DNA from: a virus
Lineage: Duplodnaviria > Caudoviricetes
DNA length: 56,278 nt
Virus record (IMG/VR): IMGVR_UViG_3300006916_000005
Span: 1 to 56,278 of that record
Direction: 5' to 3' (one strand)
Shown here: positions 4,109 through 51,151 of the stretch, piece after piece
Numbering within the stretch: the stretch's first letter is position 1
Layout: the number at the start of each line of letters is the position of its first letter
Made by a program: the position numbers and the translations under genes
Notes under the pieces: model-generated
Told to the model about the DNA's origin: nothing
What the model saw: the letters and a program-made list of their open reading frames with translations, nothing else
Database searches by the model: none

Positions 4109-4840
4109 TTACTTCCTGACAGGGAGACCCATTGCGGGTCGGGTTGATCCAAGGGAGGCTTTACGCTGTCCCATTGCTTGGTCGATCGGTGCCTTGATCC
4201 CCAGCTCCTTCACCACGTCTTGCGCCGTGGTTCCGGCGGCGATGAAGGCCCGGGCGCGCTCCGCCTTTTCGGCACGAGCGGCGGCTTGCCGTTCAAGGAA
4301 CGTCTTGATCGAGGTTTTGTCCGTTTCGGGTCGAGACTTGCGAACCCGATCGCGGACCCGGACGATGATGTCCGAACGTCGCGCCCACAGGTTGATCTCG
4401 TTCGTCAGTTTGTTGTGGGCTTTCTGGAGGCCGTTCAGCTTCCGATCGGCGGCGGCGATCCAGCGCTCCAGAGCGTCGATGTCGTTCCCGAGATCGGAAG
4501 GTTCAGCAGCAAGGATTTCTTCGTCGTCGAATTCGTCCAAGTTCACTTCTTCGTCTTCTTTGACACTTTGAGCATCTGATGCTTTGGCGAGGATTTCCTG
4601 ATCTTCGAACTCTTCCTCGATTGTCTTGTCCGCCACGAAACTCGTCGGCTCCGGAGCGTCTGATCGTTTGATGTCGGAAGGAACGTCCTTCCGTGTGACC
4701 TTGTTCCCCGTCCATTCTGACAGAACAGCGAGAACTGGAAGTCCGTCGCCTGTCCAGTGGTCGTCGTTCGAGGGGTCGAGTTGCGCCAGAGCGGCGGCAA
4801 GTGGCATGTTCATTTTGTTCTCCATGCGGTTCTGTTTCAT
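4109..4840 (-). CDS. Hypothetical protein (head module), start uncertain
   Basis: 243 aa; N-terminal LD..ND.HWT.DG.P motif seen in phage head regions; acidic and coiled-coil segments. Confidence 0.7.
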   Translation of the reverse strand: MKQNRMENKMNMPLAAALAQLDPSNDDHWTGDGLPVLAVLSEWTGNKVTRKDVPSDIKRSDAPEPTSFVADKTIEEEFEDQEILAKASDAQSVKEDEEVNLDEFDDEEILAAEPSDLGNDIDALERWIAAADRKLNGLQKAHNKLTNEINLWARRSDIIVRVRDRVRKSRPETDKTSIKTFLERQAAARAEKAERARAFIAAGTTAQDVVKELGIKAPIDQAMGQRKASLGSTRPAMGLPVRK

Positions 4841-4895: not shown

Positions 4896-5420
4896 TTAGT
4901 CATCCAGAAGGGTGATGAACGTGAACTCGATCACGCCTTGCGCCTGAAGATCGACCGACGTGTCGTCGGTGATGTTGGCGGCGTCGATCAGGACGTTCAG
5001 GTTCAGTTCCAGATCGGCGGCTGTGTTGTCGAAGACAGCGTCCGTCCCGTTGATGACGTTTTTCAGCGGAGACACTTCAGCCGTAGCAGCGCCAAGAGCG
5101 GTCGATGCGATCACGTTGACGTCGGTCCCGGTGATGGTCGCGTCGCCAGCCGGGGTCGTTCCGACACCGAAGTCACCGTCGAAAGTGTCGGCGAGGTTGG
5201 CATCAGCACCAGAGCCGGAGAACGTGACGGCGATCGCCGCGCCCAGCATCTTGATTTGACCCTCCGGTAGACCGGAGAGAACGACGGAGCCGAAGCCGAT
5301 CGCCGCGCCTGTTGCCGTGACTGTGACGGTATGATCAATTCCGACCCGGAGCTTCGAGACGACTTGAGCTTGATACCCGCCGCGACCGCCTCCGAGGGAA
5401 CGTGGAAGTCCTTTTCCCAT
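4896..5420 (-). CDS. Putative virion/capsid decoration protein
   Basis: 174 aa, beta-rich, strong AAGGAGG RBS, directly after the capsid gene. Confidence 0.6.
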   Translation of the reverse strand: MGKGLPRSLGGGRGGYQAQVVSKLRVGIDHTVTVTATGAAIGFGSVVLSGLPEGQIKMLGAAIAVTFSGSGADANLADTFDGDFGVGTTPAGDATITGTDVNVIASTALGAATAEVSPLKNVINGTDAVFDNTAADLELNLNVLIDAANITDDTSVDLQAQGVIEFTFITLLDD

Positions 5421-5454
5421 TTTATCCTCCTTTAAGGATTTAGATGAAGGTTGA

Positions 5455-5476
5455 AGGGGCGACCGAAGCCGCCCCT
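5455..5476 (-). terminator. cUUCGg hairpin after the major capsid gene (weak U-tract)
   Basis: Same GGGGCGGCTTCGGTCGCCCC stem as 277-296. Confidence 0.6.
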
Positions 5477-5484
5477 CTGGTCGA

Positions 5485-6588
5485 TTATGCCTCGCGGGTG
5501 ATCAGCTTGGCAAATTTGACTTGCTTCCGCTCGCCGTAGACACGGTTCCAGCTGGTCGCAATGTTCAGGTTGTTGGTCGTCGCAGCGTTGGACGGACCAC
5601 CGTTCGCCGGGGAGGCGGCGGTGAAGGCATGGCCCACCGGATGGATCGACCATTCCTGACGCGAGTGAAGCGTCTCGGAGCCGCCACCGTTACCGGCGGA
5701 AGCCTGACGTTCCACTTCGGTCGGAACCTTGGCGGAACCGACGCCCAGCTGGGTCGCGCCCGAACCGAACAACCACGTCTCGTAGGTGTTCGCCACGGAG
5801 GCGGTGCCATCGCCACGAACGGCGGAGGTGCCACTGGGCATCCCGTCGTCGACGATGACTTCAGCGCCAAGGAAGGTCGGGATTTGGGTTTCGCCACGGG
5901 CGTCCGGGATGAAGTCGATCAGGTTGTTCTTCTGCATCCGGTTGTAGACGACAGAGTGAACCATGACCATCGAAAGGTCTTCCATGCTGTCGCCCATCGT
6001 CACTTTCGCGTCGAGGTAGGCTTCAGCCGAGAAGTTGGTCACGCCATCGACGAAGCTCGCGCCGACGATGTCGTTCGCATAGTCGCCGCTGTCGTTGACA
6101 CCGTTGTCCTTGCAAACGCCCTGCCAAGTCGCGATGAAAGCCGCCTGAAGACGCCGCGCCCAGTAGGTGGCGACACGTTGGGCGATAGAGTTCATCGGGT
6201 CGTCGCCAGCCAGCGCAGCGGCAAGGTCTGCCGAGTTCCAGCTGTTGTTGCGCGACAGACGGACCGCGATCTCTTGGATCGCTGACGTGTCGTTCGGCGC
6301 GCTGTCGAGACCGGTTCCGGGCCATGCGTTGGCAATGGTCGCGGCGATGCGATCGGCGATGTCGTCTGTCGAGACATTGTCCGCGTCGTTGTCAAGGTCT
6401 AGCCATGAGGGAACGTTGAACGTCAGACCGCCACCAGCAAGCATCTGATCCATCAGAGCGTTGCGAGCTAGAGCGCCGGACTGGATCAGTCGGGACTTCT
6501 CTTCGGTCAGCTGTTGAACGTAACCGGTGAAGATTTCAGGGACGATGACGTCGTCGACCTGAGTGATATTGTCATTTGCGCCAGCCAT
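5485..6588 (-). CDS. Major capsid protein
   Basis: 367 aa from MAGANDN with GGAGG RBS; DVIVPEIF..YV, VHS.VY, G..VIVDD.MP and W.RVY.ERKQ motifs; follows the scaffold gene. Confidence 0.9.
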   Translation of the reverse strand: MAGANDNITQVDDVIVPEIFTGYVQQLTEEKSRLIQSGALARNALMDQMLAGGGLTFNVPSWLDLDNDADNVSTDDIADRIAATIANAWPGTGLDSAPNDTSAIQEIAVRLSRNNSWNSADLAAALAGDDPMNSIAQRVATYWARRLQAAFIATWQGVCKDNGVNDSGDYANDIVGASFVDGVTNFSAEAYLDAKVTMGDSMEDLSMVMVHSVVYNRMQKNNLIDFIPDARGETQIPTFLGAEVIVDDGMPSGTSAVRGDGTASVANTYETWLFGSGATQLGVGSAKVPTEVERQASAGNGGGSETLHSRQEWSIHPVGHAFTAASPANGGPSNAATTNNLNIATSWNRVYGERKQVKFAKLITREA

Positions 6589-6639
6589 GGGATAAATCCT
6601 CCGTTTTGAGTTAGGCTGTGAAAGGTTCAGAGCCTTCGG

Positions 6640-6729
6640 GAACCCCATGGTCCTTATTGGCTATCATGGTGTGTCCGAGACCCCATGGCCCCAGACGAAA
6701 AGAGCGACCGGACCCATGTCCGATCGCTC
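6640..6729 (-). promoter_or_regulatory. Structured capsid-gene leader with three AUGG-loop hairpins
   Basis: Stems at 6702-6729 (12 bp), 6673-6696 (10 bp) and 6640-6653 (5 bp), all with loop AUGG; G-U pairs form only on the mRNA strand. Confidence 0.75.
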
Positions 6730-6732
6730 CCT

Positions 6733-6760
6733 AAGATAGCGTCTGTTTCGCGTTTGTAAA
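6733..6760 (-). promoter_or_regulatory. Putative sigma70-type promoter for the capsid gene
   Basis: TTTACA-N16-TATCTT. Confidence 0.55.
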
Positions 6761-6766
6761 CAGCCT

Positions 6767-7606
6767 TTATTTCTTGCGAGGTTTCCCGCCGGTCAGAGTG
6801 GTCCCAGCGGCGGTCGCCATCTGAGCGCCGTATTCCCGGCCCTTCGACTTGACGACCTCCATCTGTTTCGTGACGTTCCAGCCGTCGGCGGACCACGGGT
6901 TCGACGATCCGGACATCGTTCCAGCTCCACGACCAGCACCAGCCGCGCCGCCACCTTGCGACGGAGGCCACCAGTGCGGGCGCTTATCTTGCATGTCCTG
7001 AAGCCAGACGCCAGCCTCGACGCCGGGGGTCACGCCCACGCCGTCACGGGTGACGATGGTTCCATCTTCAGTGACCTCGAAGACCCGTTCGGCGAGGAAT
7101 AGGGCGTCCTCGTGGGCTTCCGGGATCACCTTCTGTTCGACCAGAGCTTCGCGGACCGTGTCGTGGATCGCGCGGCGTGTGTTCTGGACTTTGAAGGTCT
7201 GGTTCTCTTCGCGGAGAGCGTTCAGCTCCTTCTCCGCTTGCGACAGCTGTCGCTGAAGGGGAGCTTCGCGGGACTTGATCGTCCCCTCGACCCGGCGGTT
7301 CACGATCTCGTCGATCGCAGCTTCGTCGAGCTTGCCAGCGGCGGCGGCTTCGAGTTCGGGGAGCTTGTCGAGCTTGGACTGGAGTTCCTCCAGATCGCCC
7401 AGCGCGCTCCATGGTTCGAGAGCTTGTTTCGCTTGCTGGTGGTCGTTGCGCTCCTTCAGGAGAGCCGACTGAACCCGCTCGAAGTCAGCTTGGGTCTTGA
7501 CCCCGGCGATGCCGGTCAGCTCGAACTTGCCACCTTTTTCGGTGTAGAGGTCGCGGTAGACCTCCGGGATGTCGTCGATTGTGTCATGAATTGCTTGGAG
7601 TGACAT
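6767..7606 (-). CDS. Capsid scaffolding protein
   Basis: 279 aa from MSLQAIHD; coiled-coil, C-terminal PHWW..S.GGGA and NPW motifs; upstream of the capsid gene. Confidence 0.8.
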   Translation of the reverse strand: MSLQAIHDTIDDIPEVYRDLYTEKGGKFELTGIAGVKTQADFERVQSALLKERNDHQQAKQALEPWSALGDLEELQSKLDKLPELEAAAAGKLDEAAIDEIVNRRVEGTIKSREAPLQRQLSQAEKELNALREENQTFKVQNTRRAIHDTVREALVEQKVIPEAHEDALFLAERVFEVTEDGTIVTRDGVGVTPGVEAGVWLQDMQDKRPHWWPPSQGGGAAGAGRGAGTMSGSSNPWSADGWNVTKQMEVVKSKGREYGAQMATAAGTTLTGGKPRKK

Positions 7607-7617
7607 GTCTGTCCTTT

Positions 7618-7700
7618 CTGTCTGCCCATGCAGTTGCATCAGTGGACCCCATGGCCCACTCGATGCGGGGACCTTACATGGGCAGACAGTAGAACGTCAA
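7618..7700 (-). promoter_or_regulatory. Scaffold promoter/leader with AUGG hairpins and a 13-bp inverted repeat
   Basis: TTGACG-N18-TAAGGT at 7671-7700; hairpins at 7636-7666 and 7622-7633; perfect inverted repeat 7618-7630 / 7677-7689. Confidence 0.65.
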
Positions 7701-8107
7701 GCGTCCTCGCCCCGGAGGATCATCACGATGTCCAGACAGGCGGACAGCTGTTCCGGAATGGCGGTGAAGATCACCATCACCGGGAACGGTCGTTCACTGG
7801 TGACTGAGAAATAGAACCCTGTGACTGTAGCTCCATGAACTGGGTGGACGAAATTAATGCGGTTCAAGAAGGTCAGGGCGAAGTCGTCTTCGACTTTCGA
7901 GATCGAGCCGTAGCAAACGCCACGAGGGGACTTGATCAGATACCCGTCGACCATTCCATCGGGCGATCGGAAGGTGGTGAACTTCTCGACGTCGTGGTTC
8001 TGGAAGATGCCTTCGATCTCCGGCAAGGTCTCCGCGTTCGAGAATATGGGGACGAAGATCAGAAGCCCAGTGATCAGGGCGGCGAGGTAGTTGTTGCGGT
8101 TGAACAT
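7697..8107 (-). CDS. Hypothetical secreted/periplasmic protein
   Basis: 136 aa, signal-peptide-like N-terminus, AAGGAG RBS. Confidence 0.75.
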   Translation of the reverse strand: MFNRNNYLAALITGLLIFVPIFSNAETLPEIEGIFQNHDVEKFTTFRSPDGMVDGYLIKSPRGVCYGSISKVEDDFALTFLNRINFVHPVHGATVTGFYFSVTSERPFPVMVIFTAIPEQLSACLDIVMILRGEDA

Positions 8108-8162
8108 AGTTCTCTCCTTGGGTTGTGGGTTGGGCGAGTGTGGAGGCTCGCCCCGGCAGCTG

Positions 8163-8414
8163 TCAAGCTCGACGATGTTCGGTCCACTCTTCCGAGGTCT
8201 GCCAGCCCATGGACGCCTCGTCGGTTGCCGCGTGGGTGTGGAGGATGACGCCGACGATGAAGTAGCTGTGGTCGGGGTCCATCTCTTCCCAGCATCGACA
8301 CATCAGGCTAGCTTGCGAGACAGCGTCCTCGATCGACAAGGTGTTCAGGAACTCCGTCCGGGAGCGGTTCCCGTGGATCGCGGAGTAGCGGTTGAATGTG
8401 ACGCGAAAGTCCAT
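8163..8414 (-). CDS. Hypothetical protein
   Basis: 83 aa, AAGGAG RBS, coupled to the upstream stop. Confidence 0.7.
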   Translation of the reverse strand: MDFRVTFNRYSAIHGNRSRTEFLNTLSIEDAVSQASLMCRCWEEMDPDHSYFIVGVILHTHAATDEASMGWQTSEEWTEHRRA

Positions 8415-8584
8415 CAGTTGATCTCCTTCAGGCTGGAGGTTGCGACGACGCGGGTGGTGAAGCGTGTCCGCTCCCAGTAGGCGTTGTCCTTGACCCGGAC
8501 GACGGTCAGGACGCCGTCCGAGTTGATGATCTCACAGCGAACGTCTGTCGCTGTGAGGTGGGTCGGGTTGAAGGTGGCGTTCAT
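8414..8584 (-). CDS. Hypothetical protein
   Basis: 56 aa from MNATFNP; ATGA overlap with the upstream gene. Confidence 0.65.
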   Translation of the reverse strand: MNATFNPTHLTATDVRCEIINSDGVLTVVRVKDNAYWERTRFTTRVVATSSLKEIN

Positions 8585-8874
8585 GCCACCATCTCCCGGG
8601 TGATTCGCTTCTTCTCGAAGCCCAGTTCCGTCGACAGCCACTTCGTGACGGCGAAGACGTTGGGCGACAGGAAGGCGAGGCGAAGGGACTGGAGGTCCCC
8701 GTCGCTGTTCAGGTCGTAGACCCAGCCGTCGAAGGTCAGGTCCGGGTGATCCGCCGCCAGCTGTTCGCGGGTCTTCTGGATGTTCGTGGCTCCGTGCCAG
8801 TTCTCCCAGAGCTTACAGTGGACCGGGACTTCGATCCCGTCGGATGTCTTGCAAATTGCTGTTTTGATAGTCAT
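8581..8874 (-). CDS. Hypothetical protein
   Basis: 97 aa, AAAGGA RBS. Confidence 0.75.
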   Translation of the reverse strand: MTIKTAICKTSDGIEVPVHCKLWENWHGATNIQKTREQLAADHPDLTFDGWVYDLNSDGDLQSLRLAFLSPNVFAVTKWLSTELGFEKKRITREMVA

Positions 8875-8886
8875 GGTCTTATCCTT

Positions 8887-9201
8887 TCAAGGAAGATCAT
8901 AGGCACGACGCCCACGGGTTTCCCATTTCTCGATCACAGGCTGGCCCAGCTCGTCCTCGTCGACCACGATGTAGGCGACCGTCTTCAGGACCCGGGCGTA
9001 GCGCTTGCCTTCGGTGGTGAAGATGACGTGGGGGAACTCGTCGATCGAGGCCCACGGGTTGGAACAGAAGTCGCAAGAGGGAGCCGACCAGCGATCGCCG
9101 AACTCGAAGGTGTGACCCTCGTCCGCCTCGCGGAAGTGACCAAGAATGATCGGGTCGAAGCCAATGTGGCGGCGGTCGTTGGTGTGAGATGCGAAGGCCA
9201 T
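8887..9201 (-). CDS. Hypothetical protein (first gene of a cassette)
   Basis: 104 aa, AAGGAG RBS directly after the promoter repeat. Confidence 0.8.
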   Translation of the reverse strand: MAFASHTNDRRHIGFDPIILGHFREADEGHTFEFGDRWSAPSCDFCSNPWASIDEFPHVIFTTEGKRYARVLKTVAYIVVDEDELGQPVIEKWETRGRRAYDLP

Positions 9202-9214
9202 GGGAGGCTCCTTT

Positions 9215-9259
9215 CCGTTTCTGATGATCTCAATCTACACTATGAGCGGCAGATGTAAA
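9215..9259 (-). promoter_or_regulatory. Promoter/leader repeat copy 2
   Basis: TTTACA-N16-TAGATT..GATCATCAGAAACGG. Confidence 0.85.
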
Positions 9260-9298
9260 CCCCTTATTTCGAAACAGTCTGTTTTTCGCAAATTGTGC

Positions 9299-9343
9299 TT
9301 TACATCTGCCGGGAGATGGTCTATCTATAGATCATCAGAAACG
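9299..9343 (+). promoter_or_regulatory. Promoter/leader repeat copy 3 (only complete plus-strand copy)
   Basis: TTTACATCTGCCGGGAGATGGTCTATCTATAGATCATCAGAAACG followed by an AAAGGAA RBS. Confidence 0.85.
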
Positions 9344-9356
9344 AAAGGAACACGAC

Positions 9357-9608
9357 ATGATGACCATCGAACAGAAGAAAGCCAGACGCGCCGCGATCAT
9401 GGACCTGACCGCTGATCTCCGCGCCCAGTATGGTGAGACGCAGGACCAGCTTCGGGCGGTCGAGCTGGAGATGAACGAGATCGACTACCCTTGCGCTCGC
9501 CTCACCCGTCTGTCCGACAAGCGCTGGGACCTGTCCGCTCGCATGACTTCGATCGACGCGAACATAGAGCGCCGGGTCGAGGCTTATCTGAAGGAGATCG
9601 CAGCATGA
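9357..9608 (+). CDS. Hypothetical coiled-coil protein
   Basis: 83 aa behind the plus-strand repeat and RBS. Confidence 0.8.
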   Translation: MMTIEQKKARRAAIMDLTADLRAQYGETQDQLRAVELEMNEIDYPCARLTRLSDKRWDLSARMTSIDANIERRVEAYLKEIAA

Positions 9609-9850
9609 CCGGGGACAACACTCTCCGCCTCGACGTCTGGTTCTCTCCGGAGTTCCAGTCGTGGGGCGTGACCGAATATCTTGGCGACGACCTGAACGAG
9701 ACCGGAACGGAGAGCGAATGGTTCTACTTGAAGATCGGCGCGATCGAGCGCGCGAACGAGCGGCTCCACAGCCTCGACGACGAGGTCCAGCGGGTGGACA
9801 TCTACTCGAAGGCGTGGAACCTGATGTCGTCGAAGACGATGCTATCGTGA
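9605..9850 (+). CDS. Hypothetical protein
   Basis: 81 aa from MTGDNTLRL; AAGGAG RBS; ATGA overlap. Confidence 0.75.
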   Translation: MTGDNTLRLDVWFSPEFQSWGVTEYLGDDLNETGTESEWFYLKIGAIERANERLHSLDDEVQRVDIYSKAWNLMSSKTMLS

Positions 9851-10024
9851 CCGGAGCCAGATGATCTCGCACAGTCCGGCGGACGTTCCGTCGGACTGGC
9901 ACCGCTTCATGAAGTGGACGTAGGTTTCGCCCTTCCGTGGGCGCTTGTCGTTCGGATCGAGCTTCCGGAGGACGTCGATCGGCGCTGATCCGACAGAGCC
10001 TCGATCGTTCAAGAGGCCCAGCAT
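9842..10024 (-). CDS. Hypothetical protein
   Basis: 60 aa; P.KGE....FM.RC motif; start uncertain. Confidence 0.5.
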   Translation of the reverse strand: MLGLLNDRGSVGSAPIDVLRKLDPNDKRPRKGETYVHFMKRCQSDGTSAGLCEIIWLRSR

Positions 10025-10244: not shown

Positions 10245-11429
10245 TCACAAGAAGTTGTCCGGGTCGAGACCGGCGGCGATGAAGGCGTCCCGGTCGCGTC
10301 GAGCGAGCTGTGACAGGGTCAGCTCGTCGCCCCTACGGTTCACGAAGCGATCGAGCTTCAGGTTCCCGTCCCGGAAGAGCTTGGCCCGGGTTGGTCCGAG
10401 GATGTCGATCTGGAAGGACGTCGGCTGTCGGGTCAACCAATCCTGATAGCTGATCTTCGCGTCGATGACGCCGGTCCGCTTCCTGATCTCGCCCCGGGAG
10501 AACTGATCGAAGCTCCCCTTGTGACCACGGGGAAGGGAGGCCCGGTTGCCCACAGGCTTGATCCCCGCCTTCTTTGCATAGTCCCGGAGAAGGCCCTTCT
10601 CTGTCACCGCCTTCGCTGGACGCTTTCCAATGACCTCGCCGTCCAGTTCCGCGACACGAAGGGACCGACAGTTCCAATGTAGCGGCGGGATAGGTCCCTT
10701 TCCGACAGGGAACCGCTTTCCATCGTTTGCACGACAGACCGGAGTGGTTCGGCTGTCCAGTGTGGCGACGTAGACCTCCCGGTCGAAGACGTCGGCGTTC
10801 GCTTTGTAGAACTCTCGCTTCGCGGCGTTGCTGTAGGAATTGACGGCGGTCCGGGCGATCGCTTGGGCTTGTCTCCGCGTGATCTGTGTGACCCCATCCT
10901 TGCCTCTCTGGTTTACCGATCCGACCACCCTCCGGGCGATCTCTCGCGTGGGTTCACCTTGGACGACACCGATCCGGATCGCTTGCTCGATCCTCTGGAG
11001 GTCAGCCCGGGCGATCTGGTTCGACCAGTCCTTCAGGGTCCGGCCCTCGAAGGGGTGGTGTGTGACCAGCGCCTTCAGAGTGTCGACATTCGGGAGGACT
11101 GTGTCAAGGAGGACAGGGGCGACGGTCTGGAGAGCGGTCGCCAGAAGCGCCGGTTCAGCCTGAACCAGAGCGAGCATCTCGTCACGCCAGACTTGGGAAC
11201 TTTTTTTCCAGCTCTCCGAGCGTATAGCGGCGATCGCCTTGATCAGCCTCTCCTGACTTGCCACCGATCGGCTCTTGTCGAGCCTCTTGATGATCAGGTC
11301 CTTGATGTCCTTCTCCGTGGCGTCGAGAAGATCGAAGACATCGTTCCGAACCTTCCCGGAAAGCCGGAGAAGTCCGATCTGATGCCGGATCATCGCGTCC
11401 AGCCACTCGTCGTTGATGTCGTTCGCCAT
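10245..11429 (-). CDS. Head morphogenesis protein (SPP1 gp7 / Mu gpF family)
   Basis: IART, ATLDSRTT.VC...DG and PPLHWNCRS motifs. Confidence 0.9.
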   Translation of the reverse strand: MANDINDEWLDAMIRHQIGLLRLSGKVRNDVFDLLDATEKDIKDLIIKRLDKSRSVASQERLIKAIAAIRSESWKKSSQVWRDEMLALVQAEPALLATALQTVAPVLLDTVLPNVDTLKALVTHHPFEGRTLKDWSNQIARADLQRIEQAIRIGVVQGEPTREIARRVVGSVNQRGKDGVTQITRRQAQAIARTAVNSYSNAAKREFYKANADVFDREVYVATLDSRTTPVCRANDGKRFPVGKGPIPPLHWNCRSLRVAELDGEVIGKRPAKAVTEKGLLRDYAKKAGIKPVGNRASLPRGHKGSFDQFSRGEIRKRTGVIDAKISYQDWLTRQPTSFQIDILGPTRAKLFRDGNLKLDRFVNRRGDELTLSQLARRDRDAFIAAGLDPDNFL

Positions 11430-12259: not shown

Positions 12260-12527
12260 CGTCCTCTTCCTCGTAGGGGATGCGATCAGCTCCGACCAAG
12301 AGGTTCAGCTTCGCGCGCTCCATGTCGTAGATCATTTCGTCGTCCCCTTGGCCCATCGCGTAGGTCGTCAGGGAGCCGTCTGGTGATCGACCGATGAAGA
12401 ACCCCTCTTCGACGATCCCGGCTTCAGCGTCACTCCTGACCGCCTCGATCATTGTCATCATCGTCTTCTTCGTCTGGGTCTCCGGGTTCTCGGTTTCCGC
12501 CACCAGCTTGATCATCGTCATCGACAA
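12252..12527 (-). CDS. Hypothetical protein overlapping the portal 3' end (start uncertain)
   Basis: 91-aa ORF fills the gap between the portal and the next gene. Confidence 0.55.
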   Translation of the reverse strand: MSMTMIKLVAETENPETQTKKTMMTMIEAVRSDAEAGIVEEGFFIGRSPDGSLTTYAMGQGDDEMIYDMERAKLNLLVGADRIPYEEEDDG

Positions 12528-14007
12528 GGTCCTTCGAATTCATGGACCCCAGAACGAGGTCCTCTTCTTCCTCGATCTTAGCGATCTCTTCATCGAAGTC
12601 CAGTTCGGTGACGTCCTTGTTCTGGAGCCAGAGATGGATCGTCTCGTAGGACAACGGCGCTCCGCTGTTCTTGGCGGTGACCATCTTGACGAGATCGTCC
12701 GGCGTGAAGCTGTCGTCCACGAAGTCAAGGTTCGGGGTCACGACGACCTCTTCCGGGTTCGCGCCGATCCACTTGGCGATCTGGCGGAGCGATTGCTGGA
12801 GACCGTAGGCCCCGGTCAGGGCGATCTGGTTCAGCGTGGCAGTCCGGGCGGCGACCCTGATCTTCAGGGCGTCACCGCTCTCCCGTTCCCGGGAGACGCT
12901 GTCCATCAGCTGTCCGCCTTTCTGCATCGCGCGATTGTAGTCGTTCTCCAGAGAGGTCCGCTGTTCGGGGATGCCGTCGGAGCTTGGTCCAATGAACTCC
13001 GCCGTCCCGTTCTCCGGGAGGTGGATCGTCGCACCAGCGCCCAAACGGATCGCCTCGTCTGCCATGTTCCCGCCGGAGATGACCAGCGTGTCCTGTCCTT
13101 GCATGAAGAGCGCTTGACGATAGTCAGCCTCGCCACGATAGATCGCCATGATCGCGGACGCCAGTCCAAGGAGAGGCGGCTTGTCGGGATCAGGGACCAC
13201 GTCACAAGCGTTGATGATCACGAAGGGAATTTCGTCGAGCTTTGTCCCACGGTAGGACGGGTCGATCAGGTTCTCTTCGCTGAAGTCGAGGCTTTTGTCG
13301 TCACGAAAGACGCCGACCCGGTAGGTCCCGGTCCCTTTCGGTTCGTTCTCGTCGACAGCTCCGAGGATCAAGACGCGATACTTCTGGCGCTCGACCCAGT
13401 TGAAGCTGTCCCCCTTCTCGCGCTCGAAGCCTGTCTCGTCGAGGACGACAAGGTTCAAGTTCTGGACCTCGATCCCATCCCGGGAGCCTTGGTCCCAGTT
13501 GATGATCGCCTCCGTCTCATAGAGAGCGATGTAGGGGAGATCGTCGACGCGGACTGTCTTCCCAGCAGCGACCACGGTCGATCGGCTGGCTCTTGGGTCC
13601 ATCGTCATATCCGACAGGAGGCCGACGCGCCCGGTCAGGAGTTGCTGTTCGTTGATCCGGCGGAGCAACATCTGGAGGCTCTCGTTCCGGAGGGTGGCTT
13701 GCTCCCGGAGCGGCTCCATCGCCGCCGGAAGCTCGATCACGGCGGGCTTGTGATGCATCACGCCAAGCATCGCGGACACCGCGTCGTCGAGGATGTCAGG
13801 GAGGATCGCGCGGCTCTTGTAAGCCTCATAGGCTTGGAAGCCCGGGGAGAGAGCCGTGGTCATGCCGTCCTCGATCATCCCGGCGGTCGGCTTCAGGTAT
13901 ATCTGACCCTTCTCCTTGACCTGTCTCTCTCCGAGATAGATGTCGCGGAGCATGACCCAGTCCGGGAGGTGGGTTGAAAAGAGTGGATGCTTCTGTTCGA
14001 CGCCCAT
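12430..14007 (-). CDS. Portal protein (DUF4055 type)
   Basis: 525 aa directly after TerL; HP, Y..Y..RA, I.NW, IPF and PPLL.LA motifs. Confidence 0.9.
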   Translation of the reverse strand: MGVEQKHPLFSTHLPDWVMLRDIYLGERQVKEKGQIYLKPTAGMIEDGMTTALSPGFQAYEAYKSRAILPDILDDAVSAMLGVMHHKPAVIELPAAMEPLREQATLRNESLQMLLRRINEQQLLTGRVGLLSDMTMDPRASRSTVVAAGKTVRVDDLPYIALYETEAIINWDQGSRDGIEVQNLNLVVLDETGFEREKGDSFNWVERQKYRVLILGAVDENEPKGTGTYRVGVFRDDKSLDFSEENLIDPSYRGTKLDEIPFVIINACDVVPDPDKPPLLGLASAIMAIYRGEADYRQALFMQGQDTLVISGGNMADEAIRLGAGATIHLPENGTAEFIGPSSDGIPEQRTSLENDYNRAMQKGGQLMDSVSRERESGDALKIRVAARTATLNQIALTGAYGLQQSLRQIAKWIGANPEEVVVTPNLDFVDDSFTPDDLVKMVTAKNSGAPLSYETIHLWLQNKDVTELDFDEEIAKIEEEEDLVLGSMNSKDLVDDDDQAGGGNREPGDPDEEDDDDNDRGGQE

Positions 14008-15555
14008 TTAGAACATTCCTGTCGTTTTGCCGGTTCCGCCCCGGTTCCCAGTAGAGCGAACCCGGTAGCGTGTCTCGTCGCCGATATGGTCTTCGGCGTC
14101 GGTGTCCACGTCATCCGGGTCCTTGTCCGATCGCGGAAGGACCGGAACGGTTCTTATGAATTGATCACAATTCTCGAAAATAAACAAGCCCGGGTCTTCG
14201 CGCATTTGGACTTGACCCGTTTCTTCGTCGATCAGGTTCTTCGCGTTGCGGATGTACTTGCGGAGGGTCTCCCAGCCAGCCTTCCTTGATCCGGGTCGCT
14301 TGTCAGCCTTCGTCCAGATGATCCCGGAGGGATACTTCTTCCCGTCCCGGGTGGTGAAAGGGAGGCCCATGTCCCGACCGATCGAGACCCCGTTCTCCGT
14401 GTTGTGGATCGCGTTGTCCGCCGGTCCCGGGTTGATCTTCATGTTCGGGAACATGGATCGCTCGCGCTCCGCGATGCCCTTGGCGACATCCACGGCGAGC
14501 ATCTTCTTGCCCTCGTTCGGCTTCCCGTTCCAGCCATACCATTCCGCGATCCGGAAGAGATCGCCGGGGACGGTACTATGCCAGCGACCATCGGCTCCCT
14601 TGTAGTCGGACCCATCACTCTCCGCCCACCAGCCCACGGAGAAGGGAGCGCTCGATCCCCAGTCGAAGGACCGATCGACCCTCCAGCTCGAAGGGACTGG
14701 GAAGCGCTGGACGATGTTGACCTTCTGGTCCCAGACGTCGTCGAACATGCCTCCGGCGACGATGTCCCAGCTCCCCTCCAGCCATGCGGCGAGCTTCGCC
14801 GGGTTGTCGGCTTGTTTCTTCAGCTGGGCGATGTAGTTGGGCTGGGCGGTCAGGAGGATCGTGTTCTCGTAGATCGTCCCCTTGATCGTCAGCCGTTCGA
14901 GGACGTGTGTCTCGACCTCCCCGGTCACGGGGTTCTCGATCTTGTAGGTCGCGCGCCTCCGGACCCCGTCCTTCTGTGGGAGTTCGAAGTAGAACTTCAC
15001 TTGGTTGTGTCCGACCCCGTAGGGGTTCGTCGTGGCCCGGACCCGGAGCGGGATTTCTCTCTCTGTCGATCGGAGACAGGACATCATCGACTTGTAGCCT
15101 TCGAGGCTCGCCCAGTTGGTCAGCTCGTCCCAGCCGATGAACTGGAACTCCTGTCCGTGGTACTTCCAATAATCGTCCGGCTTGTTGAACTGTCGGAAGA
15201 GAAGCTCTTCCCCATCAGGGAAGACCCACTTGTAGGCGGAGCCGTTCCATCGAGCGCCGGGGAACATTTTGGGGAACCAGCGCTTCGACTTCGTGATCAG
15301 GTCCTCCAGCTGTGGGAAGGTCTGGCGGAAGATGACGCCCTTGTATTGGAGGCCCCAGCCGCGTCCGATGAACTGGGCGAAGTCCATCAGGAGCGTGTCC
15401 GACTTCCCGGGTCCCCTCGTCCCGTGATAAAGTATCTCGAAGACATAGCTCCGCTTCATCAGCTCCGTTTGTGAGCCTTTGAGCGGTTCCCATGCCTTCT
15501 TCGTGCCTTCGGGAACGACGAAGGCCGGGGTGATGGTGTCAGCTGTCGTCGTCAT
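14008..15555 (-). CDS. terL: Terminase large subunit
   Basis: Walker A G.RGPGKS, Walker B IGWDE, TTNP.G.GH, nuclease DWG...P and EDHIGD..RY. Confidence 0.95.
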   Translation of the reverse strand: MTTTADTITPAFVVPEGTKKAWEPLKGSQTELMKRSYVFEILYHGTRGPGKSDTLLMDFAQFIGRGWGLQYKGVIFRQTFPQLEDLITKSKRWFPKMFPGARWNGSAYKWVFPDGEELLFRQFNKPDDYWKYHGQEFQFIGWDELTNWASLEGYKSMMSCLRSTEREIPLRVRATTNPYGVGHNQVKFYFELPQKDGVRRRATYKIENPVTGEVETHVLERLTIKGTIYENTILLTAQPNYIAQLKKQADNPAKLAAWLEGSWDIVAGGMFDDVWDQKVNIVQRFPVPSSWRVDRSFDWGSSAPFSVGWWAESDGSDYKGADGRWHSTVPGDLFRIAEWYGWNGKPNEGKKMLAVDVAKGIAERERSMFPNMKINPGPADNAIHNTENGVSIGRDMGLPFTTRDGKKYPSGIIWTKADKRPGSRKAGWETLRKYIRNAKNLIDEETGQVQMREDPGLFIFENCDQFIRTVPVLPRSDKDPDDVDTDAEDHIGDETRYRVRSTGNRGGTGKTTGMF

Positions 15556-18219: not shown

Positions 18220-18241
18220 GTCAGTCGCTCCTTGCGGCTGT

Positions 18242-18273
18242 GGGGAGGGTCGCCCCTCCCCGGGTTGATTAGA
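18242..18273 (-). repeat. Post-stop hairpin repeat, copy B
   Basis: 32 bp identical to 25043-25074; GGGGAGGG-GCGA-CCCTCCCC stem-loop. Confidence 0.85.
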
Positions 18274-18533: not shown

Positions 18534-18579
18534 CCGTTTCTGATGACCTATAGATAGATCATCTCCCGGCAGATGTAAA
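18534..18579 (-). promoter_or_regulatory. Promoter/leader repeat copy 5
   Basis: Near-consensus copy. Confidence 0.85.
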
Positions 18580-19284: not shown

Positions 19285-19330
19285 CCGTTTCTGATGATCT
19301 ATAGATAGACCATCTCCCGGCAGATGTAAA
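19285..19330 (-). promoter_or_regulatory. Promoter/leader repeat copy 6
   Basis: Consensus copy. Confidence 0.85.
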
Positions 19331-19746: not shown

Positions 19747-19792
19747 CCGTTTCTGATGATCTATAGATAGACCATCTCCCGGCAGATGTAAA
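19747..19792 (-). promoter_or_regulatory. Promoter/leader repeat copy 7
   Basis: Consensus copy, identical core to copy 6. Confidence 0.85.
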
Positions 19793-20329: not shown

Positions 20330-20375
20330 CCGTTTCTGATGATCTACATATAGACCATCTCCCGGCAGATGTAAA
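20330..20375 (-). promoter_or_regulatory. Promoter/leader repeat copy 8
   Basis: Near-consensus copy. Confidence 0.85.
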
Positions 20376-25022: not shown

Positions 25023-25042
25023 GGTCAGGCTTCCTTGTGTGC

Positions 25043-25074
25043 GGGGAGGGTCGCCCCTCCCCGGGTTGATTAGA
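25043..25074 (-). repeat. Post-stop hairpin repeat, copy C
   Basis: Identical to 18242-18273. Confidence 0.85.
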
Positions 25075-36483: not shown

Positions 36484-36509
36484 CCCGAGGCGACCGAAGC
36501 CGCCCCGGG
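36484..36509 (-). terminator. cUUCGg hairpin after the SSB gene (no U-tract)
   Basis: Shares GGGGCGGCTTCGGTCGCC with the hairpins at 277 and 5456. Confidence 0.5.
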
Positions 36510-38875: not shown

Positions 38876-40410
38876 CTGTTGTCTCCCATGATAGTTTCAG
38901 CGACTTGGAGCTTCTCCCGGAGCTTGCGGACGCGCTTCTCGTCGACCGTGTCGGTCGCCATCATGTCGCCGTAGAGAACCGAAAAGTCCATTTTGCCTCT
39001 GTGCGTTCTGTCTTCAGATTGCCTCCGGAGGCGGAGGCGGCTGTCGTTCGTGTAGTAAAGGACATAAGGGGCGATGTTCAAAGTGTGTCCACGATACATC
39101 GCTTGCGTCTGAGCCGCAAGGAATTGTGGACCGGTCTGGGCGAGCCAGCGCCGCTTGTTTTCTTCCCGGACATCCTGATCGGTCTTCCCGTCGTAGCGGA
39201 CCAGTCGATCGCCCAGAGCGTCCTGAAGGAGTTCGAGGTCCCGGGTGAAGCGACACCAGATCAGGACCGGGTGGGTCTGTTTGTTCAGCTGGGCGAGCGC
39301 TGTTTCGAGGCGTGGGTTCTCCTTGAACGTCACCACCTTCTGGACAGCCTCCCCGTTCTCGTCCTCCATGAACGGGAGATATCCGGCTGTGATCTGGTAG
39401 AGCTTCAGGATGTTGACGATCGGAAGCTCCGCTGTGATCAGGCTCTCGATGTCAGCTCCGTCCGCTTGGGTTTCGATCATAAGATCGTCCCTGATCTTCT
39501 CATAGGCGTCCCATTGCTCCTTCGACATGTCGAAGCGGTGCTGGGTGTATTGCTTCTCCGGGAGATCGAGACAGTCCCGCTTCAGTAGCCGGGAGCTGTG
39601 CGGCTTCAGGATGTCGTGAAGCTCTTCGAGGTTCTGGTAGCGGAGCAACATCGGGAAGTGGCGACCGTCGTTCCGCTCGACATCCTTCCAGATGCCGAAG
39701 TAGGTCTTGAAGCTCTGGAACGACGCGAAGCCGCGATCGCGCCAGAAGTCCGGGTCGAGGAATTGCATCTGTGGATAGACATTGAAGGGACCCTCGTCGA
39801 CCGGCGTTCCCTCCATGATCCGGCGATAGAGAGCGAACCGACTGATCCCGCCACGCCCACCATGGCCCACAAGGGTCTTCGTGATCTTCGTCCCGGGCGT
39901 CTGGATTTCAGCCGCCTCGTCGATCAGGAAGGCGGTCCGCCGATCGCGGACCATCTTGGCACAGAACAGCTTCCCGCCGATCCAGCCGGAGGTCTTCGAC
40001 TTCTCCGTCTTCACCGCGTCATAGGACATCGACAGGACGACGAACTTCTTCGAGTAGAACGCCTCCTTCATCTTTTGCTGGTGCCACTTGGTCCCCGCCT
40101 TCTTCGTGTCGTAGGCCACGAAGTCGATCTGGTCATGCCACATCGGAGGGACGAGCGGCTGGTCGTAGGGATTCGTCTTGGACGGCTCCTTGATCGCCTC
40201 CTTGATCCATTCGAGATGGACGCCGTTCGGGGAGACGACGACGAGCGTGTCAATCTTCCCGGCTTGCCAGAGGGTCAAGGCCCAGTCGTAGCCAGCCTTC
40301 ATTTTTCCCAAGCCTTGCTCCCAGAAGATCGCGCGGTTCGGTGTGTTCCAGTGGTCTTTCTGTTCGACGTCTTGATGGTCGAACGGTGGCATCGTGTGAG
40401 GGTAGTTCAT
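38872..40410 (-). CDS. SNF2-family DNA helicase
   Basis: EQGLGK, IDEA, GTP, G.TL and RQSEDR.HR motifs. Confidence 0.9.
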   Translation of the reverse strand: MNYPHTMPPFDHQDVEQKDHWNTPNRAIFWEQGLGKMKAGYDWALTLWQAGKIDTLVVVSPNGVHLEWIKEAIKEPSKTNPYDQPLVPPMWHDQIDFVAYDTKKAGTKWHQQKMKEAFYSKKFVVLSMSYDAVKTEKSKTSGWIGGKLFCAKMVRDRRTAFLIDEAAEIQTPGTKITKTLVGHGGRGGISRFALYRRIMEGTPVDEGPFNVYPQMQFLDPDFWRDRGFASFQSFKTYFGIWKDVERNDGRHFPMLLRYQNLEELHDILKPHSSRLLKRDCLDLPEKQYTQHRFDMSKEQWDAYEKIRDDLMIETQADGADIESLITAELPIVNILKLYQITAGYLPFMEDENGEAVQKVVTFKENPRLETALAQLNKQTHPVLIWCRFTRDLELLQDALGDRLVRYDGKTDQDVREENKRRWLAQTGPQFLAAQTQAMYRGHTLNIAPYVLYYTNDSRLRLRRQSEDRTHRGKMDFSVLYGDMMATDTVDEKRVRKLREKLQVAETIMGDNR

Positions 40411-50317: not shown

Positions 50318-51136
50318 TTAGAGCCTCGTTTGGAATGGGTTTCTGGTCGGGACGTATGGGAAGCCGCCGTAGTTGCTCCCGTTTGAATAGCGGTCGATGC
50401 AATGCCCGCCGTTTGTCAGCTGGTGGTTGCATCCACGACGGACGGAGACGGCGTCCAGCGCCGCGACGTTGGGTGAGAACGGGGACGCAAGGGTGAAGGA
50501 GGTCCCGGTGTTCGAAACGATCATCCGCTGTTCGCTTGCGGCGATCATGCTTCCGCCCACACACTCGTCATCGGCGAAGACAGAGGTGTCGGCGATCGTG
50601 ACCACGTTGTCGACGATCGTGGAGATCGTCGTGTCCTGATTGTTGTCGACCGTCGTCATGTCAACCTTGCAAAACCTATCCCCGAGGACATGATTGCAAG
50701 GTCCCTGATACTTGATCCGAGGGAGCGGCTTATTGAAGATGTAGGAGAAGAGCGACGGGACGCGACACTTCGCGGTCCGGCCCTTGATCGTCCACGACAC
50801 GACCTCCCCGTCCCACAGGGTCAGGGCGTCGTTCATGTCGTTGCGGTGAACCCGGAGTATCTGGAGAGCCAGACCCGGCGGAGGGACGTTGATGCAATAG
50901 TCCGTGACCATCTGGTCCGACGCTGGCATCTCGATGTCGATCGTCAGATCGTCGTCCTCTTGGGTTCCCTCTTCGAACTCGGACCGCTTGATCGCATTGG
51001 CGACCCATGTCGCCTCCGTGTTCGTGATGCTTTCGGGAGCGCTCGTCCGGTAGTATGTCGTATAAGTCCCCACGAACCGGAACAGCTCGATCGGAGCGCC
51101 GTCCTGTGTTGATTGTTCTGTCGTCAGAACCGCCAT
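50318..51136 (-). CDS. Baseplate hub protein (DUF2163/BR0599, GTA-like)
   Basis: P.ELFRF, C.H.L.D..C.V, GC.H, C..RY.N..NYGGFP..P..NPF. Confidence 0.9.
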   Translation of the reverse strand: MAVLTTEQSTQDGAPIELFRFVGTYTTYYRTSAPESITNTEATWVANAIKRSEFEEGTQEDDDLTIDIEMPASDQMVTDYCINVPPPGLALQILRVHRNDMNDALTLWDGEVVSWTIKGRTAKCRVPSLFSYIFNKPLPRIKYQGPCNHVLGDRFCKVDMTTVDNNQDTTISTIVDNVVTIADTSVFADDECVGGSMIAASEQRMIVSNTGTSFTLASPFSPNVAALDAVSVRRGCNHQLTNGGHCIDRYSNGSNYGGFPYVPTRNPFQTRL

Positions 51137-51151
51137 CGGTTCGCCTCCTTT

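Follow-up and report, generated by a model that had tools for sequence, protein, structure and literature searches.

The coat-protein operators of the RNA phages MS2, Qbeta and PP7 are hairpins in which the tip is fixed and the stem free; they lie at or next to a start codon and are read by a structural protein to limit translation. The scaffolding gene of phage P22 is reportedly under post-transcriptional autoregulation, a finding attributed to Casjens and Adams and to Wyckoff and Casjens, both in 1985, and we know of no defined RNA site for it. Here we describe five RNA hairpins with an AUGG tetraloop in the 5' leaders of the head scaffolding and major capsid genes of a virus of the Caudoviricetes (IMG/VR record IMGVR_UViG_3300006916_000005). 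The record, 56,278 bp long, is complete and has direct terminal repeats; it was analysed as a whole and is called the window below. The hairpins are real, conserved across relatives and uncatalogued.

Like the operators of MS2, Qbeta and PP7, the hairpins combine a fixed tip with a free stem, and the scaffold start codon lies in such a tip in a part of the relatives. Unlike them, they belong to a double-stranded DNA phage, occur in several copies per leader, concern two target genes, have no bulged A, carry a different tetraloop and bear no sequence relation, and their reader is putative. The precedent of P22, to which an earlier reading of the letters alone (the sequence-only reading) had appealed, holds functionally only. 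As in P22, we propose a scaffold gene under post-transcriptional control, presumably matching assembly needs, whereas the proteins are unrelated, the start regions of P22 genes 8 and 5 hold no comparable hairpin and that of gene 8 has no significant fold. Long-read data for phage YuA list a candidate non-coding RNA derived from the 5' untranslated region (39396-39519), upstream of the major head gene gp56 (Putzeys et al. 2024, PMC10914365). YuA resembles the window phage in its membership of Mesyanzhinovviridae, in the scaffold-capsid gap, in which YuA has this short leader RNA, and in fixed-tip hairpins. It differs in the tips, which are GNGAU in place of AUGG, and the accessible part of the YuA paper describes neither hairpins nor a function.

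All five hairpins of the sequence-only reading are found where it had placed them on the mRNA strand, which is the minus strand of the window, and three of them are strong (6699-6732, 6673-6696 and 7636-7666). In the capsid leader, hairpin 1 (6699-6732) has a stem of 14-15 bp, into which the 12 bp previously seen at 6702-6729 extend, and is followed by UUUUCGUC; it folds at -24.5 kcal/mol in the sense and -18.0 kcal/mol in the antisense strand (z -6.4) and has counterparts in Alphaproteobacteria phage PhiJL001 and in locus L004. Hairpin 2 (6673-6696) comprises 10 bp including three G-U pairs, folds at -14.8 against -1.8 kcal/mol antisense (z -3.7) and aligns with the first CCAUGGGG hairpin of the clade of locus L023. 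Hairpin 3 (6640-6653; 5 bp) is weak alone, at -5.1 kcal/mol and z 0.19, with 99 of 200 shuffles folding equally well, and in the minimum-energy fold it pairs instead with the capsid ribosome-binding region; it nevertheless aligns with the second ACCAUGGGG hairpin of relatives. That region (6586-6602, minus strand) reads GGAGGA, an 8-nt spacer and CC-AUG-G, the capsid start being CCATGG at 6585-6590 as had been noted. The AUG in the tip of hairpin 3 (6646-6648) is in the capsid frame, 20 codons upstream (open reading frame, ORF, 5485-6648), and has no usable Shine-Dalgarno sequence. The capsid leader as a whole folds at z -6.5 relative to shuffles.

The scaffold leader holds hairpin A (7636-7666), with 8 bp and a 5-bp extension, at -20.1 kcal/mol sense against -15.0 antisense (z -4.7), and hairpin B (CUGC-AUGG-GCAG, 7622-7633), with 4 bp at -4.5 kcal/mol, a few bases 5' of the scaffold Shine-Dalgarno. 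Hairpin A is enclosed in a composite structure (7618-7689, minus strand; -44.4 kcal/mol, z -6.2) by an outer stem of 13-14 bp (7676-7689 with 7618-7631), the arms of which are made of CCCAUG and CAUGGG. This outer stem excludes and out-competes hairpin B in the full scaffold leader, whose fold has a z of -6.2 against shuffles, and outer pairing of a similar kind is found in some relatives. A MAFFT alignment of the leader with seven relatives (capsids about 60% identical; window row one register off at hairpin A) shares the TTG of a -35-like hexamer, a CCAUG element and hairpins A and B. The stem of hairpin A covaries around an invariant AUGG tip (pair 46-53 GC in three, CG in three, UA in one; pair 45-54 GC in four, CG in two), and hairpin B matches CGGC-AUGG-GCCG of the seven relatives, with pair 65-83 being G-C in all seven and U-A in the window, a double change. 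Hairpins 3 and B, which had been listed on a par with the others, are thus weak when taken alone and compete with other pairings; they are not to be dismissed, because all five hairpins have counterparts at the same place in relatives. RNAalifold, applied to the capsid leaders, paired the two CCAUGG copies with each other, which we take for a side effect of the palindrome, although it may reflect a loop-loop contact.

The AUGG loop and the C-G closing pair are common to all five hairpins; the stems, which had been said to differ, do so only partly, as three copies share GG(N)CC-AUGG-GGUC. All non-Watson-Crick pairs are G-U on the mRNA strand. The same strand preference is seen in relatives: among 225 pairs of 30 distinct hairpins, the stems of which were extended with either mismatch, 21 are G-U and 6 are A-C, and the stem positions take all four Watson-Crick pair types. 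We interpret this asymmetry, which agrees with the energy gap between sense and antisense folds, as selection on RNA of the mRNA strand, as had been suspected from the G-U pairs of the window.

The window holds five hairpins of the CA[U/G]GGG type with at least 5 pairs, all on the minus strand, four of them in the two leaders and one in a tail-assembly gene; in first-order Markov simulations, with both strands counted, the mean was 1.1 and the highest count 5. The CATG tetranucleotide is ordinary genome-wide (220 against about 210 expected), yet the two leaders top all 150-nt windows of the genome for it: each has five copies, where a window has 0.59 on average. A covariance model built from 28 hairpins of relatives (30 distinct hits minus two with CAGG[U/A]G tips), with the window left out of training, was run on both strands of the whole window with filters off. 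Its best match is hairpin A (7640-7661, 21.3 bits, E 0.011), followed by an intragenic site at 50996-51017 (18.7 bits), hairpin 2 (6674-6695, 17.5 bits) and hairpin 1 (6705-6726, 16.4 bits); the further matches examined below these four lie inside genes. Hairpin 3 scores only 9.8 bits (6636-6657). The proposed restriction of the hairpins to the two leaders is therefore nearly true, the departures being a 6-bp C-AUGG-G hairpin inside the tail-assembly gene (50999-51014) and an AUGG hairpin closed by G-C at a start codon (51127-51142).

An IMG/VR capsid search yielded 96 confirmed relatives, of which 80 loci were retained. Three loci without an in-frame capsid start and others without a scaffold ORF of at least 200 amino acids or with a duplicate gap were dropped, leaving 59 distinct scaffold-capsid gaps of about 80-330 nt; the scaffold start was also placed by tblastn in 58. 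The nearest named phage is PhiJL001 (Keylargovirus, Mesyanzhinovviridae), with a capsid protein 82% identical, and more distant capsids are those of the Pseudomonas phages Iggy and Quinobequin-P09, the Vibrio phage vB_VpaS_CHI and the Seuratvirus Skure. The comparison across 58 relatives, of a kind that the sequence-only reading had listed among its checks, finds the loop conserved and the stems free. ATGG is the top tetraloop of hairpins with at least 5 pairs on the gene strand of the 59 relatives (78 of 3592; runner-up 39), and minimum-energy folds of the leaders show 305 apical loops, of which C-ATGG-G, with 23, is the commonest. The leaders of the 58 relatives, 15,964 nt in all, hold 26 C-ATGG-G hairpins, and the remaining 353,782 nt hold 5; for C-AGGG-G the two counts are 9 and 3, for C-ATGT-G 6 and 1, and for C-ATGC-G 3 and 0. 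CATGGG is enriched 13.8-fold in leaders (61 vs 107). Among the named phages, C-AUGG-G hairpins occur in Quinobequin-P09 and vB_VpaS_CHI and C-AUGA-G in Quinobequin-P09 and Iggy, PhiJL001 has a cAUGGu loop on a 12-bp stem 3' of a TTTACT-16-TATAGA site, and the tip of Skure is C-ACGG-G.

Two further patterns were seen in the leaders of relatives. A second fixed-tip class, G-UGA-U/C (GNGAY), often stands beside an AUGG or AGGG hairpin (L015, L018-L021, L028, L032, L038, L087, which is YuA, and others), and the 3' end of the Mu-F-like coding region contains both in some relatives. In the capsid leaders of L023, L024, L025, L027, L030 and L041, the second AUGG hairpin has AAGGAGG six bases before the loop AUG (by eye). 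This AUG opens an ORF of 6-11 codons (MGLGSDLTDRS type) in five of the six and a longer one in L027, and the GGAG of the AAGGAGG is itself paired in the extended stem.

Among 52 distinct relatives, 12 have an AUGN tetraloop that opens with the scaffold start codon and is carried by a stem of 5-7 pairs; of the control ATGs, 66 of 5071 (1.3%) are so placed. The 3' arm of these stems is coding. Seven stems are represented, GAGAC/GUCUC (second codon Gly), GAGAG/CUCUC (Ala), GAAGAG/CUCUUC, GAUCG/CGAUC, CGGAU/AUCCG, CGGGC/GCCUG and UUAAUAG/CUAUUGA, which differ and compensate among relatives. Three AUG-tipped hairpins stand in the scaffold leader of L004, the closest relative (85% capsid identity), and the final one occupies the start codon; in several relatives a hairpin of the scaffold leader abuts the Shine-Dalgarno. 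At the capsid gene, GC comes directly after the start codon, making the second codon Ala, in nearly all of the 77 relatives in which a start was found.

In both leaders of the window the hairpins sit 3' of promoter-like sites, as the sequence-only reading had it. A predicted sigma-70-type promoter (TTTACA-16-TATCTT, 6733-6760, minus strand; 9 of 12 matches) stops one base ahead of hairpin 1 and aligns with a conserved CTTGCG...ACTATG of relatives; the promoter-like hexamers of the capsid leaders of the window and the L023 clade likewise align. The scaffold leader has a weaker site (TTGACG-18-TAAGGT, 7671-7700, minus strand; score 7.5, under the threshold of the promoter scan), the spacer of which is the 5' arm of the outer stem; the TTG of its -35-like hexamer is invariant in the alignment with the seven relatives, and transcription from it is expected to start near the base of hairpin A. 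Of 28 first hairpins in relatives, 15 have a promoter-like site (score at least 7) at most 25 nt upstream, as do 17% of 3000 control positions. The hairpins start 0-18 nt past promoter-like -10 hexamers. Since the hairpins directly follow promoter-like sites, the first one would stand at or near the 5' end, and transcripts started at these promoters would carry an AUGG hairpin there without the outer stem. The composite structure can form only on read-through transcripts; in the capsid leader, such transcripts could likewise hold hairpin 1 in full, U run included. In L015-L021, L028, L040 and L080, the predicted capsid promoter (TTGCAC-17-TATGGT) lies within a long palindrome, across which read-through RNA would fold. 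A sigma-54 promoter was considered and rejected, as by eye the scaffold leader has only a loose GG-N10-GC match and the capsid leader none; the YuA record annotates a -24/-12 promoter before the scaffold gene.

The hairpins are not terminators as a class. At least five U in the next 9 nt follow 2 of 28 hairpins of relatives, compared with 5.9% of random leader positions, and the mean number of U is 2.07 after the hairpins and 2.18 at random leader positions. Terminator-like exceptions are hairpin 1, which is the sole window copy of this appearance and received no call from the terminator scan, and counterparts with clear U runs in L004, L071 and vB_VpaS_CHI. A hairpin after the capsid gene (5454-5477, minus strand) has near-identical copies at 277-296 and 36484-36509 (minus), all of the form GGGGCGGC-UUCG-GUCGCCCC and likely terminators. 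Because these bear UUCG tips, the AUGG hairpins form a separate class.

Our interpretation, to which we assign a probability of roughly 0.42, is that the AUGG hairpins together form a multi-site RNA operator through which a putative trans-acting factor controls translation of the head genes or stability of their mRNA. They would work in cis on the scaffold and major capsid messages, in whose 5' leaders each displays A-U-G-(G) at a tip of 3-4 bases on a stem of free sequence; the last scaffold-leader copy adjoins the ribosome-binding site. One trans-acting reader may recognise the AUGG tip and lower or tune the translation, perhaps the decay, of both head-gene messages. We consider this interpretation plausible; the start-codon hairpins strengthen it, and it is mainly because they have the layout of a translational operator that we rank it first. 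The proposal of a multi-site operator in the sequence-only reading is in this respect partly borne out, by the conserved loops and by the scaffold start codon that some relatives expose in a like loop.

Several observations weigh against an operator of this kind. A strict ANGG or AUGN tetraloop is present in the minimum-energy folds of only 37 of 58 relatives, and in both leaders of 13, both figures being lower bounds because bulged stems are missed. AUG is not strictly required, as some lineages bear AGGG or ACGG tips, and one loop with one reader may be too simple, because the GNGAY class shares many of the leaders. The capsid start lies in such a hairpin in none of the 52 relatives, and the scaffold and capsid start codons of the window are both outside such hairpins. 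The hairpins of the relatives were picked for pairing, so that their paired fraction is circular and proves nothing. Finally, we infer the reader, the direction of its effect and any part in the scaffold:capsid stoichiometry or late timing that the sequence-only reading had proposed.

As to the identity of a reader, five complete relatives share the terminase, portal, scaffold and capsid genes and gene 4109-4840 with the window, the MuF gene and some tail genes are found in three or four of them, and replication genes in one or two; ORF calling in this comparison was crude, with some wrong-strand ORFs picked. It follows that a conserved phage-encoded reader would be a protein of the head module, which includes the scaffold protein as a candidate, or a small, fast-evolving one beyond the reach of tblastn. 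A universal host factor is equally possible as a head-module protein. The small ORFs at 7697-9902 were considered and rejected: neither the 80 related loci nor the other phage loci compared contain a homologue, and the ORFs therefore cannot be a conserved reader. One of them, an ORF of 136 amino acids (7697-8107), has a signal-peptide-like start, and its stop codon lies within the -35 hexamer of the scaffold promoter-like site. Neither a CsrA gene nor a ribosomal protein S21 gene was found in the phage. CsrA/RsmA sites have ANGGA in a hairpin loop, and the hairpins described here resemble them in a C-A-N-G-G tip near the ribosome-binding site; they differ in that the GGA core is missing, the tip being ANGG followed by the closing G, and in that the phage has no CsrA gene. 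To our knowledge, CsrA is absent from most Alphaproteobacteria, and alphaproteobacterial ties are indicated by the name of PhiJL001 and by the alpha-type transfer-messenger RNA (tmRNA) genes of L023 and L024.

The alternative that best withstands these data, although we hold it to be unlikely, is that the hairpins passively shield the abundant head-gene messages from decay that depends on the 5' end, or mark RNase III cuts in read-through transcripts, the tip being kept by descent or folding and read by nothing specific. The 5'-terminal stabiliser hairpins of the E. coli ompA leader and the T7 phi10 transcript need no particular tip, and the hairpins of the window are like them stem-loops at the 5' end of a very abundant message, as far as promoter predictions place that end. 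RNase III sites of the T7 R1.1 type are interrupted helices of about 20 bp or more with an internal loop. The predicted fold of the composite 7618-7689 has this shape of two stems and an internal loop. The short distance of 0-18 nt from the -10 hexamers fits a stabiliser, and so does the short, abundant leader RNA of YuA (PMC10914365). Protection needs only a stem, however, and here the tip persists as the stems change, between capsids that are only 51-85% identical. The clearest terminator-type hairpins use UUCG, so that the tip is specific to its class, and the start-codon hairpins of relatives do not lie at 5' ends.

A more particular form of the operator interpretation names the reader: a head-assembly protein, scaffold or capsid, would bind the AUG-tipped hairpins, and unassembled protein would throttle both messages and thereby fix the scaffold:capsid ratio, as a widespread and undescribed autoregulatory circuit of tailed phages. 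Among its targets would be, in many lineages, the start codon of the scaffold gene itself, together with further copies on the capsid message, and the lineage-specific tips (AUGG, AGGG, ACGG, GNGAY) would co-evolve with the reader. Taken with all its parts, this circuit is also improbable.

We consider it distinctly less probable that the hairpins act on RNA polymerase, by attenuation of transcription or by nut- or put-like antitermination, either unaided or together with a small phage protein, with late read-through of terminators and with hairpin 1 and its U run as an attenuator. The boxB hairpins of lambdoid nut sites have GNRA-like pentaloops, are read by N and act with boxA on polymerase. 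Promoter-proximal placement in two transcription units, lineage-differing tips (AUGG, AGGG, ACGG, GNGAY) and free stems recall them, and the UUUUCGUC after hairpin 1, the U runs after AUGG hairpins in L004, L071 and vB_VpaS_CHI and the terminator-like hairpin 3' of the capsid gene would suit such a mechanism. The tips, in contrast, are AUGG, AGGG, ACGG or AUGN tetraloops and not GNRA-like pentaloops, only the 2 of 28 hairpins of relatives are followed by a U run, and the scaffold copies keep close to the ribosome-binding site or start codon, a position needless for antitermination.

Next to this in low probability is a function directed at the ribosome, in which the exposed AUG, with G-rich sequence often next to it on the 3' side, would be a standby or decoy for the initiating small subunit, or would start leader ORFs that open the real start site. 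Most lineages have AUG first in the tip, the true scaffold start is displayed likewise in the 12 relatives described above, the L023 clade combines AAGGAGG and a short ORF at its second capsid-leader hairpin, and the ribosome is common to all hosts. The AGGG and ACGG tips without AUG speak against it, as do the lack of a usable Shine-Dalgarno at the right distance from most copies, including all those of the window, and the leader ORFs, which vary in length and are absent from the window. Sites at the DNA level, that is, CATG/CCATGG palindromes near the two promoters bound by a DNA regulator or forming part of promoters, are very improbable: CCATGG occurs 23 times against 11.8 expected, the leaders are the densest CATG windows of the genome and the L023 clade has CATGTT at the position expected of a -10 hexamer, but the arms vary with pairing kept, the opposite of a protein-bound inverted repeat, and the G-U over A-C asymmetry and the energy gap of hairpin 2 (-14.8 vs -1.8) point to a single sense strand.

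The hairpins had been suspected to be undescribed, and searches of Rfam agree. The whole window gave no match at gathering score, and its part from 5000 to 9000, searched at E up to 10, gave only mir-214 matches at chance level, with 16-17.7 bits where the gathering score is 66.7. In twenty related loci tmRNA was the sole match; it occurs in L023 and L024, where an alphaproteobacterial-type permuted tmRNA gene lies just 5' of the scaffold leader (1448-1824 and 1428-1856, respectively; RF01849 and RF04321, above gathering score). Literature searches found no description of AUGG-tetraloop phage hairpins; novelty rests on these searches and on Rfam.

Nearly all genes of the window are on the minus strand. 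Protein scans place the large terminase (14008-15555) in the region 5' of the scaffold gene in transcription order, followed by the portal (12430-14007) and a head morphogenesis gene of Mu-F-like type (10245-11429). Between the latter and the head scaffolding gene (6767-7606, minus strand; phrog_206, E 1.8e-40) lie 2.6 kb of small ORFs unique to the window phage (7697-9902). The major capsid gene follows (5485-6588, minus strand; phrog_247, E 7.2e-95), its product being 82% identical to the PhiJL001 coat protein. No phage RNA polymerase was found among the window proteins scanned, and the window holds no tRNA or tmRNA.

Other repeated elements are present in the window. A 22-bp near-palindrome of the type GATGGTCTA-TCTA-TAGATCATC occurs in five copies, with none expected (9315-9336, 18542-18563, 19293-19314, 19755-19776 and 20338-20359), and possibly represents operator sites or hairpins of the early region. 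A perfect 9-bp hairpin (CGGGGAGGG, a 4-nt loop, CCCTCCCCG) is found twice (18241-18262 and 25042-25063) and is a hairpin on both strands. GGCC, GTAC and CTAG are strongly depleted genome-wide (observed/expected 0.36, 0.23 and 0.35), which suggests restriction-site avoidance; CATG is not (1.05).

The matching of scaffold and capsid output in tailed phages is known only as a phenomenon, and the hairpins offer for it a defined, compact and conserved RNA signal on both messages. They would add a new family to the RNA catalogues. The motif spans Mesyanzhinovviridae and Queuovirinae and includes cultured Pseudomonas and Vibrio phages, which makes the question directly testable.

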